DNA of 4,991 nucleotides from IMG/VR virus record IMGVR_UViG_2706794678_000008. The stretch is one strand, 5' to 3'. The notes beneath the pieces are model-generated. The model was not told where the DNA came from. It saw nothing but the letters and a program-made list of their open reading frames with translations, and made no database searches. The position numbers were made by a program, and so were the translations under genes. Source of the stretch: a virus. Lineage: Duplodnaviria; Heunggongvirae; Uroviricota; Caudoviricetes. Shown here one piece after another: positions 3 through 4,991 of this stretch (the first letter of the stretch is position 1; every line of letters starts with the position of its first letter).

Positions 3-2748
3 TCAGAAACGAACGCATCATCAAGCGCCAGTAGCGCAGCTTCCTCGGCGACGGCGGCTGCAAATTCTGCGAAGGCGGCCAAAACGTCCGAGACGAACGC
101 CAGGTCTTCTGAAACGGCAGCGGGACAGAGTGCCTCAGCTGCGGCAGGCTCAAAAACAGCGGCTGCGTCGTCTGCCAGCGCCGCGTCAACAAGTGCCGGG
201 CAGGCCTCAGCCAGTGCCACCGCCGCCGGAAAATCGGCAGAAAGCGCCGCATCGTCTGCTTCAACAGCCACAACGAAGGCTGGCGAAGCCACTGAACAGG
301 CCAGCGCAGCAGCGAGGTCTGCTTCCGCAGCGAAGACATCCGAAACGAACGCGAAAGCGTCGGAAACAAGCGCAGAATCCTCAAAAACGGCTGCCGCATC
401 GTCAGCCAGTTCGGCGGCGTCATCGGCATCATCGGCGTCTGCTTCAAAAGATGAGGCGACCAGACAAGCGTCAGCAGCGAAGAGCAGCGCCACGACGGCA
501 TCCACGAAGGCGACAGAGGCTGCTGGCAGTGCGACGGCGGNNNNNNNNNNNNNNNNNNNNNNNNNNNNNNNNNNNNNNNNNNNNNNNNNNNNNNNNNNNN
601 NNNNNNNNNNNNNNNNNNNNNNNNNNNNNNNNNNNNNNNNNNNNNNNNNNNNNNNNNNNNNNNNNNNNNNNNNNNNNNNNNNNNNNNNNNNNNNNNNNNN
701 NNNNNNNNNNNNNNNNNNNNNNNNNNNNNNNNNNNNNNNNNNNNNNNNNNNNNNNNNNNNNNNNNNNNNNNNNNNNNNNNNNNNNNNNNNNNNNNNNNNN
801 NNNNNNNNNNNNNNNNNNNNCGGCGTCATCGGCATCATCGGCGTCTGCTTCAAAAGATGAGGCGACCAGACAGGCGTCAGCAGCGAAGGGCAGCGCCACG
901 ACGGCATCCACGAAGGCGACAGAGGCTGCTGGTAGTGCGACGGCAGCAGCTCAGAGCAAAAGTACGGCGGAATCTGCAGCAACGCGCGCTGAGACAGCGG
1001 CAAAACGGGCAGAGGATATTGCATCCGCCGTGGCGCTTGAGGATGCGAGCACGACGAAAAAGGGGATAGTACAGCTCAGTAGTGCGACTAACAGCACTTC
1101 CGAGTCACTGGCGGCAACACCAAAAGCCGTTAAGGCCGCGTATGACCTGGCTAACGGGAAATACACCGCACAGGATGCAACGACAGCACAGAAAGGGATA
1201 ATCCAGCTAAGCAGCGCGACCAACAGCACGTCTGAAACGCTGGCGGCAACGCCAAAGGCAGTAAAAGCAGCCAATGACAATGCTGAGAAACGTCTGCAGA
1301 AAGATCAGAACGGTGCGGATATCCCTGGCAAAGACACCTTTACGAAAAATATTGGTGCCTGCCGTGCCTTCGGTGGGTCAGTAAGCACAACAACAGGAAA
1401 CTGGACGACTGCACAGTTTATCGAGTGGCTGGATTCTCAGGGAGCATTTAACCATCCATACTGGATGTGCAAGGGTTCCTGGTCTTATGGCAATAATAAA
1501 ATCATTACTGATACTGGCTGCGGTAATATTCATCTCGCCGGAGCTGTCATTGAAGTAATGGGGATAAAGTCAGCGATGACGATCCGCATTACCACTCCGA
1601 CCACATCCAGCGGTGGCGGAACAACCAACGCCCAGTTTACCTATATTAATCACGGAACAGATTATTCACCTGGCTGGCGAAGGGACTATAACTCCAGAAA
1701 TAAGCCAACGGCATCAGAGATCGGGGCGCTACCGTCAGGTGGAACAGCAGTATCATCAGTTAATCTGGCTTCAAAAGGTCGGGTAGCCGCGCTGACAGAC
1801 AATACGCAGGGGGCAGCAGGTCTTGAGTTATACGAGGTGTATAACAACGGATATCCAACAGCGTATGGAAATATCATTCACCTGAAAGGGATGACAGCCG
1901 TTGGCGAAGGTGAGTTACTCATCGGCTGGAGTGGTACAAGCGGTGCTCATGCTCCGGCATTTATTCGTTCACGACGGGATACGACCGACGCAAACTGGTC
2001 GCCGTGGGCGCAGCTTTACACCTCGGCTCATCCTCCTGCAGAGTTTTATCCAGTCGGTGCACCAATCCCGTGGCCATCAGATACCGTTCCGTCTGGTTAT
2101 GCCCTGATGCAGGGGCAGACTTTTGACAAATCTGCTTACCCGAAACTTGCAGCCGCTTATCCGTCAGGCGTGATCCCTGATATGCGTGGCTGGACGATTA
2201 AGGGCAAGCCCGCCAGTGGTCGTGCCGTATTGTCTCAGGAACAGGATGGCATTAAATCGCACACCCACAGCGCCAGCGCATCCAGTACGGATTTGGGGAC
2301 GAAAACCACATCGTCGTTTGATTACGGCACTAAATCCACGAATAACACCGGGGCGCATACGCACAGTCTGAGCGGCTCTACAAGTTCAGCTGGGGCCCAC
2401 CAACATAGTCAGACTGGGCCCAGAACGAATAGCGGGAGTCAACCTACTGGAATGTTTCCGGCAGGGAGTACTCAAGTTAGCGGGACTAATCAGGTTGGTA
2501 TCAGTGGCTCATTAACCAGTGGCACCTCCCAATGGGTAGGTAAATCATCTTCAGAAGGAAACCATACACACTCACTGTCCGGCACAGCAGCATCTGCGGG
2601 TGCACACGCGCATACTGTCGGTATTGGTGCTCATACGCACTCTGTTGCGATTGGTTCACATGGACACACCATCACCGTTAACGCTGCTGGTAACGCGGAA
2701 AACACCGTCAAAAACATCGCATTTAACTATATTGTGAGGCTCGCATAA
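3..2748 (+). CDS. stf: Side tail fiber protein (lambda Stf-like), 5'-partial (gene begins upstream of window); reading frame interrupted by assembly gap 541-820
   Basis: Frame 3 is open without stops from position 3 to 540 and encodes Ala/Ser/Thr-rich repeats ([13 protein letters not shown]..., [21 protein letters not shown]...). After the gap the same protein continues in frame 1 (821-2748): the fiber motif [26 protein letters not shown] twice, a globular middle region, then a His-x-His-rich tip ending ...[31 protein letters not shown], stop TAA 2746-2748. The frame-1 Arg-rich translation before the gap in the ORF track (MPQLRQ...) is out of frame; the frame shift across the gap reflects an arbitrary gap length. 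Confidence 0.9.
415..944. repeat. Direct repeat flanking the gap: 415-538 and 821-944 (124 bp, 3 mismatches), coding the [21 protein letters not shown](S/G)[18 protein letters not shown] shaft repeat
   Basis: Direct comparison of the sequence on either side of the N run; the copies are offset by 406 bp (not a multiple of 3), so the true gap length and repeat copy number are unresolved. Confidence 0.85.
541..820. other. Assembly gap (280 N) inside the repetitive tail-fiber shaft coding region
   Basis: Uninterrupted run of n from 541 to 820, flanked on both sides by the same 124-bp sequence (415-538 and 821-944). Confidence 0.97.
1063..1272 (+). repeat. Two copies of a 26-aa phage tail-fiber motif G-I-[VI][23 protein letters not shown] (1063-1140 and 1195-1272), period 132 bp
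   Basis: Protein-level repeat with largely synonymous nucleotide divergence between copies; this motif is recalled from P2 gpH, lambda Stf and T4 fiber proteins. Confidence 0.8.
2361..2572 (+). other. Hypervariable block A of the fiber tip (encodes ...[64 protein letters not shown]...)
   Basis: Region where unit A and unit B lose nucleotide similarity; bounded by conserved His-x-His-containing flanks. Confidence 0.75.
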
Positions 2749-2750
2749 TG
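2736..2750 (+). promoter_or_regulatory. Shine-Dalgarno (GAGG) plus overlapping stop/start TAATG; translational coupling of stf to the downstream ORF
   Basis: GAGG at 2736-2739, 8 nt upstream of ATG 2748; TAA 2746-2748 shares one nucleotide with ATG 2748-2750. Confidence 0.6.
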
Positions 2751-3800
2751 GCATTCAGAATGAGTGAACAAGCACGGACCATAAAAATTTATAACCTGCT
2801 GGCCGGAACTAATGAATTTATTGGTGAAGGTGACGCATATATTCCGCCTCATACAGGTCTGCCTGCAAACAGTACCGATATTGCACCGCCAGATATTCCG
2901 GCTGGTTTCGTGGCTGTTTTCAACAGTGATGAGTCATCGTGGCATCTCGTTGAAGATCATCGGGGTAAAACGGTTTATGACGTGGCTTCCGGCGACGCGT
3001 TATTTATTTCTGAACTCGGTCCGTTACCGGAAAATGTTACCTGGTTATCGCCGGAAGGGGAGTTTCAGAAGTGGAACGGCACAGCCTGGGTGAAGGATAC
3101 GGAAGCAGAAAAACTGTTCCGGATCCGGGAGGCGGAAGAAACAAAAAACAACCTGATGCAGGTAGCCAGTGAGCATATTGCGCCGCTTCAGGATGCTGCA
3201 GATCTGGAAATTGCAACGGCTTATCCGTCAGGCGTGATCCCTGATATGCGTGGCTGGACGATTAAGGGCAAACCTGCCAGTGGTCGGGCCGTATTGTCTC
3301 AGGAACAGGACGGCATTAAATCGCATACCCACAGCGCCAGCGCATCCAGTACGGATTTGGGGACGAAAACCACATCGTCGTTTGATTACGGCACTAAATC
3401 CACGAATAACACTGGTGCGCATACCCATAGTTTAAGTGGCAGCACGAATGCAGCTGGTAATCACAGCCATAGAGATGGCCGTCGATTTAACCCCAGTGTT
3501 TTTAAAGATACTTATCAATATGGTTATACAAGCTCAGGTCAAAATACCTGGGGTGTACAAGGCTCAGTAGGTATGTCTACGGGGTGGTTAGCGAATACCA
3601 GTATAGATGGTAATCATAGCCATTCACTGTCCGGCACAGCAGCATCTGCAGGTGCACACGCGCATACTGTCGGTATTGGTGCTCATACGCACTCCGTTGC
3701 GATTGGTTCACATGGACACACCATCACCGTTAACGCTGCTGGTAACGCGGAAAACACCGTCAAAAACATCGCATTTAACTATATTGTGAGGCTCGCATAA
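2748..3800 (+). CDS. Chimeric ORF: tail fiber assembly protein N-terminal domain (about aa 1-157) fused in frame to a duplicated side-tail-fiber C-terminal tip (about aa 158-350)
   Basis: ATG 2748-2750 overlaps the stf stop (TAATG) with GAGG at 2736-2739. The N-terminal 157 aa ([44 protein letters not shown]...) are near-identical to the downstream tfa. From 3219 the ORF continues into [18 protein letters not shown]...[11 protein letters not shown], matching the C-terminus of the upstream fiber except for the hypervariable block. Stop TAA 3798-3800. Whether the fusion is a functional product or a by-product of the duplication is unknown. Confidence 0.7.
3425..3624 (+). other. Hypervariable block B of the duplicated fiber tip (encodes ...[60 protein letters not shown]...)
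   Basis: Counterpart of block A in unit B; 12 bp shorter, more AT-rich and richer in aromatic residues; the same His-x-His positions are retained at both edges. Confidence 0.75.
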
Positions 3801-3802
3801 TG
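3788..3802 (+). promoter_or_regulatory. Shine-Dalgarno (GAGG) plus overlapping stop/start TAATG; translational coupling into tfa
   Basis: Identical arrangement to 2736-2750, carried within the duplicated unit: GAGG 3788-3791, TAA 3798-3800, ATG 3800-3802. Confidence 0.6.
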
Positions 3803-4381
3803 GCATTCAGAATGAGTGAACAAGCACGGACCATAAAAATTTATAACCTGCTGGCCGGAACTAATGAATTTATTGGTGAAGGTGACGCATATATTCCGCC
3901 TCATACAGGTCTGCCTGCAAACAGTACCGATATTGCACCGCCAGATATTCCGGCTGGTTTCGTGGCTGTTTTCAACAGTGATGAGTCATCGTGGCATCTC
4001 GTTGAAGATCATCGGGGTAAAACGGTTTATGACGTGGCTTCCGGCGACGCGTTATTTATTTCTGAACTCGGCTCATTACCGGAAAATGTCACCTGGTTAT
4101 CCCCGGAAGGGGAGTTTCAGAAGTGGAACGGCACAGCCTGGGTGAAAGATGCAGAAGCAGAAAAACTGTTCCGGATCCGGGAGGCGGAAGAAACAAAAAA
4201 CAGCCTGATGCAGGTAGCCAGTGAGCATATAGCGCCGCTTCAGGATGCTGTGGATCTGGAGATCGCAACGGAGAAAGAAACCTTGTTGCTGGAAGCTTGG
4301 AAAAAGTATCGGGTGTTGCTGAACCGTGTTGATACATCAACTGCACCGGATATTGAATGGCCAGTAGCACCTATAGGGTAA
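3800..4381 (+). CDS. tfa: Tail fiber assembly protein (lambda Tfa family), full length, 193 aa
   Basis: ATG 3800-3802 overlaps the preceding stop (TAATG) with GAGG at 3788-3791. The protein [44 protein letters not shown]...[34 protein letters not shown] is recalled as closely similar to lambda Tfa and E. coli prophage Tfa proteins. Stop TAA 4379-4381. Confidence 0.92.
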
Positions 4382-4991
4382 ATTCGTAATGATTACCTAA
4401 ATACGTTATTCTTTTGTTAAAAAAGTGATTTTGCTATAGGTAGGGAGTATGTTCTTGGATTAAGAATAAAAAATCGCCATGAAAGAGCTTCATGGCGAGT
4501 ACATAAACGTACAAAATGTGATGAAAGTAGAGTGGCGTAAGCCACTATATTAAGATATGACAATAGCGAAGAAAAGTAAATAACATTTTATGGACGTTTA
4601 ATTGTTAATTATAAAAACTAGAGTGCCCGATATTGTTTATCTTGCTTTAAAATAATGTACTCAAACCAAATTTTTGAGCTAAAAGCTCAAATAATATAAA
4701 TGCAATAATAATGTTTAATAAGACAATTAGCTTGCTTTGTATTTTCATTTCGGAATACTGTTAAGTAACTTTGATGACCCTAACAATAGATCGGAATTTT
4801 CTTAGAGTCAATGGTCACTGTTTTTGCTTGCAAAGCAAATGTTTTGGTGGTTATAAGTCGTCTTAATATAGTCACGCATGCAACTTGTTCCATGCGGAGA
4901 TTAAAGATTGGAATATAACGCGAAGATGGAATTAAATTACATTTGCAATAATTAATTTATTATTACTCAATAATTACCGATATTATTATTG
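4382..4991. other. AT-rich non-coding region downstream of tfa; no ORF of 60 aa or more on either strand
   Basis: Abrupt GC drop immediately after the tfa stop; only very short ORFs (35 aa or fewer) without convincing ribosome-binding sites; several small hairpins (e.g. ttgagct-aaa-agctcaa at 4674-4690). Confidence 0.6.
4462..4497 (-). terminator. Putative rho-independent terminator for a leftward (minus-strand) transcript
   Basis: Perfect 9-bp stem cgccatgaa (4475-4483) / ttcatggcg (4489-4497) with 5-nt loop. On the minus strand the hairpin is followed by AUUUUUUAUU (complement of 4465-4474). On the plus strand the run is an A-tract upstream of the stem, so it is weaker as a tfa terminator, though bidirectional action is possible. 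Confidence 0.45.

Follow-up and report, generated by a model that had tools for sequence, protein, structure and literature searches.

The window (the whole 4,991-nucleotide stretch of DNA that was analyzed) carries a side tail fiber gene, stf, with a tip that we call tip A, an intact chaperone gene, tfa, and, between them, a reading frame in which a truncated tfa runs into a second fiber tip, tip B. The positions of these genes and of the segments that compose them are listed in Table 1.

Table 1. Features of the window, numbered from its first letter
Feature	Position	Strand	Remarks
Side tail fiber gene stf, with tip A	3..2748	+	Cut by the left edge of the window; interrupted by the N-run
280-N scaffold gap (or mask)	541..820	.	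Overlapping flanks 415-540 and 821-946
Homology block H1, left copy	2155..2360	+	Collar end and first needle strand; partner 3219-3424
Tip A variable segment (head, receptor-binding domain)	2361..2562	+	T4 gp37 head region in 2XGF alignment
Homology block H2, left copy	2563..3218	+	stf 3' end, stop/start overlap, tfa codons 1-157
Shine-Dalgarno-like GTGAGG of the chimera	2734-2739	+	Read from sequence; identical copy at 3786-3791 serves tfa
Chimeric ORF	2748..3800	+	350 aa, ATG start; Tfa residues 1-157, then tip B residues 158-350
Tract from second prophage allele (Y)	3020..3695	+	Contains the joint and every difference from relative L006
Illegitimate joint	3218/3219	+	tfa codon 157 (ACG) adjoins stf codon GCT (AYPSG)
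Tip B variable (head) segment	3425..3614	+	2XGF alignment, repeat comparison
Intact tfa	3800..4381	+	193 aa; sole complete chaperone gene in the window

The stf gene matches the Pfam families Phage_fiber_2, Collar, and Phage_fiber, and over positions 1192 to 3219 it is 98.0% identical to the stf gene of E. coli SCU-111. The open frame is not the same on both sides of the 280-N run, being frame 3 from the start of the window and frame 823 past the gap. The start of a listed "ORF 130..2748" was rejected because it is created by the N-run; stf in fact crosses the left edge of the window in frame 3. The exact protein encoded by the intact tfa gene is also found on contig CXAI01000274.1. Downstream of tfa, within the window, there is no ORF of at least 60 aa, and the region is an AT-rich b-region that is shared, at a coverage of at least 80%, with 815 genomes.

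The variable segments of tip A and tip B cannot be aligned with each other. A tip A query (2330 to 2640) is covered to at least 80% in 25 of 5,426 complete genomes, and each of the 12 matches listed has 100% identity along the whole query. E. coli and Shigella have many tip B proteins with 95 to 98% identity. K-12 Qin was considered as a donor of tip B and rejected, as it matches at 91 to 94% only and has a different head. The two copies of block H1, which are offset by 1064, are 96.6% identical (7 mismatches in 206 nt), and the two copies of block H2 (2563 to 3218 and 3615 to 4270) are 97.1% identical and include a perfect repeat of 376 nt (2644 to 3019 and 3696 to 4071).

The earlier note had claimed an in-frame, 350-aa fusion of Tfa to a fiber tip with no stop or frameshift, and both the ORF listing and the translation bear out that this reading frame is present in the sequence. 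Across the joint the sequence reads ATT GCA ACG / GCT TAT CCG (GAAATTGCAACG followed by GCTTATCCGTCA). The exact overlap of the two parents at this position is 1 nt (G), with an additional imperfect similarity of the form TTGCAnCnG. Compared with intact Tfa, residues 1 to 157 of the chimera have 4 substitutions (P92S, T118A, N135S, and A151V), and the final 36 residues of Tfa are missing. The 27 nt surrounding the two tfa starts are identical, including the TAATG stop/start overlap, which for the chimera lies at 2746 to 2750 with GTGAGG 8 nt upstream. The chimera start is directly 3' of the fiber gene and translationally coupled to it, so the ribosome-binding site and coupled start of tfa that had been attributed to the chimera are indeed there, identical at both copies. 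A scan for an internal promoter or terminator between stf and tfa gave nothing above shuffled sequences. The length of this reading frame is no evidence of selection, because the sequence downstream of the joint is a segment of an intact gene and is open anyway. Given a tfa-to-stf joint, an open frame requires only the correct phase, for which the prior chance is 1 in 3, and the 350-aa ORF exists because the phase at this joint is, by chance, correct.

The joint interrupts a conserved domain in each parent, namely the C-terminal region of Tfa and the collar of Stf. The chimera matches positions 1 to 97 of the 131 positions of the Pfam profile Caudo_TAP (PF02413) with 76 bits, which is not a full-length match, while intact tfa matches positions 1 to 130 with 150 bits. 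Residues 127 to 191 of Tfa, a conserved C-terminal region, align to residues 113 to 174 of Mu TfaMu (PDB 5YVQ; E value of 1e-8). The joint, at Tfa residue 157, falls inside this aligned region, and the C-terminal helical region is incomplete in the chimera. On the fiber side, the Collar domain (PF07484) of stf spans query residues 353 to 400 (about 2056 to 2199 of the window), and the position equivalent to the joint is residue 386; Pfam finds no Collar match in the chimera and no match to Phage_fiber_2 or to a prophage tail fiber N-terminal domain. The description of the chimera as a fusion of the Tfa N-terminal domain is correct in that the N-terminal part of Tfa is present, but the joint does not coincide with the edge of a domain. 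In addition to the 36 Tfa residues, the chimera lacks about two thirds of the collar and the whole of the Stf shaft repeats and virion-attachment part, and its first 157 residues are Tfa. The needle and the variable head are complete: residues 152 to 350 align to chain residues 59 to 242 of T4 gp37 (2XGF; E value of 1e-61), and all seven HxH motifs are kept (residues 193, 225, 239, 290, 304, 313, and 322). A single-sequence AlphaFold2 prediction of the chimera has a mean pLDDT of 40.9, and the helix at residues 118 to 157 alone is moderately confident.

The parentage of each segment is visible from comparison with relatives. The closest relative, L006 (its contig is seen in 2 samples), has a plain, single-copy stf(tip A)-tfa module, which we call type X. 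Positions 1014 to 3019 and 3696 to 4991 of the window are identical to L006, with 0 mismatches, and the joint is absent from L006. The other parental type, Y, is represented by an ordinary contiguous stf-tfa module: the reconstructed Y unit is found in complete genomes at 99.1 to 99.3%. The joint had been described as a duplication joint. There is a tandem repeat of the tip and the 5' part of tfa, but it is no simple duplication, since its additional 1,052 nt derive from another prophage allele. On the tfa side, the break follows one X/Y SNP by 6 nt and, judged by the Y-like genome TUM9757, precedes the next one by about 4 nt. At the joint, Y-type stf reads CTTGCAGCCGCTTATCC, like X. We considered a longer microhomology in the Y allele, which would explain an overlap merge, and it is not present; the maximum is 1 nt in either parent.

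Neither the joint nor the fusion was found a second time. With a 191-nt junction query, megablast finds no place covered to at least 80% in 5,426 complete E. coli genomes, phages, and plasmids, and neither an exact 24-mer nor a degenerate 26-mer matches anything in the genome, viral, and metagenome contig collections. A look-up of the exact chimera product gives no match, and the protein search for other Tfa-tip fusions (phmmer for the representatives) finds 0 homologues with both halves in the order of the chimera among 5.8 billion protein clusters and 0 among 1.84 billion protein representatives. Two matches that consist of two pieces (H61 and H62) were considered as possible joints and rejected, since they have the ordinary stf-then-tfa order. 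Other one-off, in-frame chimeras of the stf-tfa module do exist, namely an stf::tfa fusion (P0001), two fusions of another sequence to tfa (P0135 and P0136), and a terminase-N::tip B fusion (P0016). A literature search for tandem duplications of tail fiber modules gave nothing directly relevant.

One reading of the chimera, raised in part in the earlier note, is that it is a selected fusion of the Tfa N-domain to tip B, which could act as a free receptor-binding or decoy protein (superinfection exclusion) or as a self-chaperoning tip that joins fiber trimers. The intact frame, the tfa translation signals, and the complete needle and head with their seven HxH motifs are all consistent with such a protein. 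In Tfa proteins, fiber binding is reported to reside in the N-domain and trimerization and assembly in the conserved C-terminal helices (PMC9608196), and Tfa proteins are reported to be able to remain on virions (PMC9608196, PMC7291167). However, the fusion is not conserved in the related prophages or in any other collection searched, and L006 is without it. Both parents are cut inside conserved domains, a tip without a shaft cannot attach to the virion, the open frame is accounted for by the chance of phase, and the structure prediction yields no usable model. We consider a selected function very unlikely, and these results give no support to the proposed decoy or chaperone-tip roles. We regard as highly improbable a related scenario in which the junction is real and either the chimera is expressed and, assisted by the intact Tfa encoded downstream, folds into a free tip B trimer with Tfa N-domain caps as a decoy, or the heteroduplication is a recombinational reservoir from which the prophage releases progeny with either tip. 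In the first case, the tip B receptor of the lysogen or of neighboring cells would be occupied by the decoy, which would amount to exclusion.

The window is a draft scaffold. The two flanks of the 280-N gap, which lies in the same stf gene, overlap by 126 nt with 4 SNPs and are two different alleles: the right copy is identical to the sister draft L005 and the left copy is another allele. This segment is single copy in L005, L002, L003, and L004. Scaffolders such as SSPACE/GapFiller routinely mark unmerged joints with a single N. In L005, two different stf genes are joined across a single N, and this joint gives rise to a 938-aa protein with two tip stretches (P0121) that is the top match among the representatives; we rejected it as a natural double-tip fiber because the single N lies exactly at the switch, which makes it a scaffold joint.

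An assembly artifact is the main rival to recombination. In this case the isolate would carry two ordinary prophages, X with tip A and Y with tip B, and scaffolding or gap closing across the 376-bp shared segment would have doubled this segment and closed the interval with reads of the paralogue; the tfa-to-stf joint would then never have been present in the cell. The allelic mixture around the N-run and the faked double-tip protein of L005 are in keeping with this, as are the uniqueness of the joint among all collections searched and the fact that all foreign bases lie between flanks that are 100% identical to single-copy L006; X-identical flanks around a paralogue-derived fill are also expected from erroneous gap closing. 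The event is a singleton, and the DNA junction is thus a putative one. In contrast, the joint itself carries no N, whereas the unmerged joint of the same region in L005 is marked by one. An overlap-based assembler would not be expected to fuse the parents, because their overlap at the joint is no longer than 1 nt whether the allele is X type or Y type. Nor is the tfa-side breakpoint a natural contig end in a de Bruijn (k-mer) graph, because of the X/Y SNPs that lie 6 nt before it and about 4 nt after it. We consider an artifact a serious possibility, although a somewhat doubtful one.

Based on the anatomy of the locus and the parentage of its segments, we favor, with moderate confidence, the interpretation that a single recombination event between the tail fiber modules of two prophages gave rise to the chimera locus as an incidental and unstable product. 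The window would represent the tail fiber end of X, a lambdoid prophage of E. coli in which stf with tip A is followed by tfa and then by the AT-rich b-region. X would have acquired one additional 1,052-bp unit, copied from the stf-tfa module of Y, a second and common type of prophage that carries tip B. The Y tract would run from the middle of tfa, at codon 92, to codon 157, make a backward, illegitimate jump with 1 nt of microhomology to the stf codon at AYPSG, and from there extend across tip B and into the 376-bp stretch in which X and Y are identical. The resulting X-Y/Y-X pattern could have arisen by a single repair or gene conversion event that was primed within this stretch and switched template backward once, or by a Campbell-type insertion of a 1,052-bp circle.

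Under this recombination model, any expression of the late operon would also produce the chimera, because its ORF inherits the tfa ribosome-binding site and the TAATG coupling. Most likely the product has no effect or a mildly disruptive one and is not a new receptor-binding protein, since it lacks the C-terminal residues of Tfa, the shaft and attachment part, and a portion of the collar. The arrangement would also be unstable. A RecA-type crossover in the 656-nt block would give stf with tip A plus tfa, and one in the 206-nt block would give stf with tip B plus tfa; simulated resolution by either block leaves an intact stf and the 193-aa tfa in both products. The proposal that the chimera is a silent store of tip B holds in a trivial sense only, in that homologous recombination would yield stf with tip B and tfa, but there is no sign that the arrangement is maintained.

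The locus itself has little biological weight; it is one more case of near-identical segments in coresident lambdoid prophages driving the shuffling of receptor-binding tips. Such shuffling, or the draft assembly of such repeats, yields in-frame junction ORFs that resemble new genes. Apparent stf-tfa fusion proteins from draft scaffolds, of which P0121 is an example, need to be checked against the reads and against sister genomes. If the junction is real, the window is a snapshot of a tip exchange intermediate that simple homologous recombination can resolve to either tip.

The invertible segments of Mu (G/Gin), P1 (C/Cin), e14 (P/Pin), and p15B (Min) likewise hold two alternative tips and chaperone genes at one locus. 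Another reading of the window is that of a programmed cassette, with direct repeats kept for toggling between tip A and tip B and the chimera as a silent store of tip B. The two intact outcomes of the simulated crossovers fit such a cassette. However, deletion between direct repeats is one-way and cannot toggle, and the arrangement has been seen only once and is absent from the sister isolates. In the known switches the cassettes are inverted, have crossover sites of 26 bp, and lie next to an invertase, whereas the copies in the window are direct repeats on the plus strand; the window has only two inverted repeats, both weak and unrelated. There are 0 matches in the window to a gix/cix/pix-type crossover site with up to 3 mismatches to the consensus TTNTCNNAAACCNNGGTTTNNGANAA, and no serine invertase or recombinase ORF lies within the window, where tfa is followed by the b-region. 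We consider a programmed switch extremely unlikely.

Like the T4 gp37 tip (2XGF; chaperone gp38), the chimera has the HxH motifs, and its variable part maps to the head region. Unlike gp37, its fiber part starts inside the collar, without a shaft, and its N terminus is a chaperone fragment rather than fiber. The intact tfa gene of the window aligns to TfaMu (5YVQ), of the two-part Tfa family, over the conserved C-terminal region, while the chimera keeps the first half of this region (to LEIAT) and has lost the 36-residue remainder.

Among the closest known systems is the Stf-Tfa module of Ur-lambda, to which stfR/tfaR and stfQ/tfaQ of E. coli cryptic prophages are homologous; it shares with the window its genes, their order, and the TAATG coupling. 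The match of the window to lambda stf-tfa is about 92% and covers 73% of the query, and thousands of E. coli prophages match the window as well. A normal module consists of a single tip and a single tfa, whereas the window has an extra unit of tip B and tfa codons 1 to 157 in between and a truncated tfa fused to a truncated tip. The other chimeric ORFs of stf-tfa modules (P0016, a terminase-gpA-N::tip B fusion on 480 contigs, and P0001, P0135, and P0136) are also in-frame, illegitimate joints, and several of their breakpoints are within about 40 codons of AYPSG. These ORFs keep the normal gene order, as a deletion leaves it; in contrast, the joint in the window is of the duplication type, with the order reversed from tfa to stf, and has been seen once.

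The window covers the distal late-operon end of a lambdoid prophage of the E. coli type, and the coordinates of its features are collected in the table. The Stf product matched Phage_fiber_2, Collar and Phage_fiber (Pfam), with Phage_fiber_2 repeats in the shaft (..[27 protein letters not shown]..) that correspond to two direct repeats; these are ordinary, yet they make the stf sequence still harder to assemble. The fibre tip is closely homologous to the receptor-binding tip of T4 gp37 (PDB 2XGF, E 1e-61) and has all seven HxH motifs, and the intact Tfa has a full Caudo_TAP domain (Pfam). The AT-rich stretch lies 3' of tfa in 815 complete E. coli genomes (≥80% query coverage; best 99.4-99.7% identity), and one example, in strain ECamp52, adjoins attB-lambda (ybhB/bioA). 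A strong hairpin in this region, which is without sizeable ORFs, is probably the terminator of a leftward transcript from the b-region.

Features of the window and their coordinates
Feature	Position (nt)	Description
stf, side tail fibre gene	left edge..2748	enters from the window's left edge
Run of N	541-820	280 N, inside stf
Run of N with both flanks	415-946	126 nt on each side
Direct repeats in stf shaft	1040-1278	two of 107 nt, 132 nt apart, 74% identical
Repeat unit 1 / unit 2	2155-3218 / 3219-4270	copies differ
First repeat block	2155-2360 / 3219-3424	96.6% identical
Second repeat block	2563-3218 / 3615-4270	97.1% identical
Perfect repeat	2644-3019 / 3696-4071	376 nt, inside second block
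Chimera	2748..3800	350 aa, ORF in question
Joint	3218/3219	tfa to stf
tfa, intact tail fibre assembly gene	3800..4381	193-aa product
AT-rich stretch	downstream of tfa	non-coding
Hairpin, then T-run	4474-4498	minus strand, 11 pairs, ~100 nt downstream of tfa

The earlier note had described the chimera as an in-frame Tfa-tip fusion with its own translation signals, and both points are borne out. Tfa residues 1-157 run uninterrupted into [13 protein letters not shown]... and on to the normal fibre C-terminus; this Tfa part has 4 substitutions relative to the downstream tfa copy, and the final 36 Tfa residues are absent. The chimera has GTGAGG-N8-ATG and a TAATG stop/start overlap, the same as the real tfa, and a signal scan gave no conspicuous promoter- or terminator-like element between the genes. 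Given transcription of the late operon, translation of the chimera should proceed as for tfa. At the joint, the tfa parent runs on as GAG AAA/GAA and the stf parent has GCC ahead of GCT TAT CCG; exact microhomology is 1 nt, beside an imperfect TTGCAnCnG match. The long open frame alone carries no information on selection, because the prior for an in-frame joint is one in three.

Between the first and second repeat blocks, ~200 nt are unalignable between the units. Because this segment corresponds to the receptor-binding head of gp37, units 1 and 2 should have tips (A and B, respectively) of different specificity. Tip A is rarer than the module of the second, common prophage allele (Y, with tip B): only 25 of the 5,426 complete E. 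coli genomes covered ≥80% of the tip A query, and the 12 matches listed are all 100% identical.

The window's exact Tfa protein has been recorded on a single short draft contig, CXAI01000274.1 (L006; 2 samples), whose module is a plain single-copy stf(tip A)-tfa (type X). There are 0 mismatches to this contig over 2,006 nt (1014-3019) and 0 over 1,296 nt (3696-4991), and all 22 differences are confined to 3020-3695; a foreign tract therefore starts in mid-tfa, takes in the joint and tip B, and stops at the start of the perfect repeat. The presumed donor, rebuilt by joining window 3219-4071 to 3020-3218 (1,052 nt), occurs in many complete E. coli genomes as a normal, uninterrupted stf-tfa (99.1-99.3% identity), and 60 carry it at ≥99% identity. 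Based on the identity to L006 and the matches of the rebuilt donor, the window is an X (tip A) prophage with 1,052 bp of the Y (tip B) module in circularly permuted order.

We give a real one-off recombination about an even chance of being the origin of this pattern. That the joint is instead an assembly artefact is somewhat less likely, but a real possibility. The region is demonstrably mis-scaffolded in drafts of this lineage, and faulty gap closing would also give X-identical flanks around a paralogue-derived fill. The window itself is a scaffold whose stf reading frames disagree across the run of N, and the flanks of that run are the same segment in two different alleles, the right copy identical to the related draft prophage L005 (CXEP01000296.1) and the left copy with 4 SNPs; all relatives examined have a single copy of this segment. 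The start of the listed ORF 130..2748 and its Arg/Pro-rich N-terminus are artefacts, because they are read across Ns. L005 is 99.5% identical to the window stf up to 2537, after which come a single N (L005 2051) and then another, different stf, whose end is tip B-like. Against an artefact at the chimera's own joint, there is no N there, the parents share just 1 nt in the X and Y versions alike, and the tfa-side end falls between X/Y SNPs ~10 nt apart (by comparison with the Y-like genome TUM9757), where a k-mer graph would not end a contig.

P0121, a 938-aa "double-tip" fibre protein in a public collection, spans the single-N scaffold joint of the two different stf genes in L005 and was rejected as a product of assembly rather than a natural fibre with two tips. 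Between its tip B-type stf and its tfa, L005 carries a 296-aa ORF (3356-4246, plus strand) with a Macro domain (PF01661, E 3.9e-18), a start that overlaps the stf stop and a C-terminal tail with fibre-like HxH motifs; it may be an ADP-ribose-processing cargo gene (moron). The L005 tfa (4255-4840) is without a 63-nt stretch equivalent to window 3924-3986 and its frame is shifted at the start, so the chaperone gene of this prophage is damaged.

If the recombination is real, its mechanism was most likely one of two. Repair or gene conversion, with priming in the 376-bp segment that X and Y share, could have copied from prophage Y, made one backward template switch (tfa codon 157 to stf AYPSG), and then re-annealed in the shared segment. 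Alternatively, a 1,052-bp circle excised via an illegitimate joint could have been integrated by one crossover in the same segment. Either route would yield exactly the observed order (X-Y, joint, Y-X). The duplicated arrangement is expected to be unstable. When crossover was simulated in the first block, the result was an intact tip B stf plus the 193-aa tfa; in the second block, it was an L006-type stf with tip A plus the 193-aa tfa. The suggestion that the chimera is a store of tip B is thus right insofar as crossover can restore stf with tip B, but the deletion is one-way and there is no sign that the state is maintained.

A junction-spanning query was covered at ≥80% at 0 places in 5,426 complete E. 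coli genomes, 50,697 phage records and 72,556 plasmids; two partial two-piece matches, considered as second joints, were rejected since both have normal gene order. Exact and degenerate junction patterns gave 0 matches in genome, viral and metagenome contig collections, and the exact chimera protein has no record. The protein search that had been proposed for other Tfa-tip fusions returned no Tfa-N-then-tip protein among 5.8 billion clusters or in an exhaustive search of 1.84 billion representatives. In-frame chimeras of other architectures are common in the stf-tfa module in these same protein searches: stf::tfa (P0001), stf-N::tfa (P0135), J::tfa (P0136), terminase-gpA-N::tip B (P0016) and ClpP-like::tip B (P0010). 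Tip B is often joined in frame to unrelated N-termini, namely, the terminase gpA N-terminus, a ClpP-like protease and an Xis-like peptide (P0016, P0003, P0002, P0010). At least one tip B chimera is thus widely inherited within a cryptic prophage: gpA-N::tip B occurs on 480 contigs. In two Tfa-like proteins, P0198 (356 aa) and P0223 (652 aa), the N-terminal domain is apparently repeated (4 to 8 copies) ahead of one conserved C-terminal region, which is unusual among tail fibre chaperones.

In the summary of North et al. 2019 given in PMC9608196, fibre binding is the role of the variable N-domain in Tfa proteins, and trimerisation and assembly are driven by the conserved C-terminal helices. Residues 127-191 of the intact Tfa, its conserved C-terminal region, align to Mu TfaMu (5YVQ). 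The joint at residue 157 is in the middle of this region, and the chimera's Caudo_TAP match ends at profile position 97 of 131 (Pfam); on the fibre side, the joint comes at position 34 of the 48 residues matched to Collar, and the chimera has no Collar match (Pfam). Because the joint lies mid-region in Tfa and inside Collar, both parents are cut within conserved units, which is expected of a random breakpoint and not of a domain-wise fusion. The chimera has neither shaft nor attachment part and fails tests for a complete Tfa and for a complete fibre. A single-sequence AlphaFold2 model has a mean pLDDT of 40.9, with moderate confidence only in helix 118-157. The structural part of the earlier interpretation stands, while its functional part does not: the proposed roles as a decoy or chaperone-tip fusion are unsupported, and no conservation of the fusion was found in the collections searched, an outcome that the earlier note had listed among its grounds for refutation.

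The window's genes are members of the same family as lambda Stf-Tfa and T4 gp37-gp38. The locus does not qualify as an invertase-type fibre switch; the window copies are direct, and neither a gix-like site (by a consensus, with up to 3 mismatches allowed) nor a recombinase ORF was found within the window. The chimera is best grouped with the junction ORFs that rearrangements have left in great number in prophage tail-fibre modules, from which it differs by a duplication-type (tfa-to-stf) joint that is seen only once.
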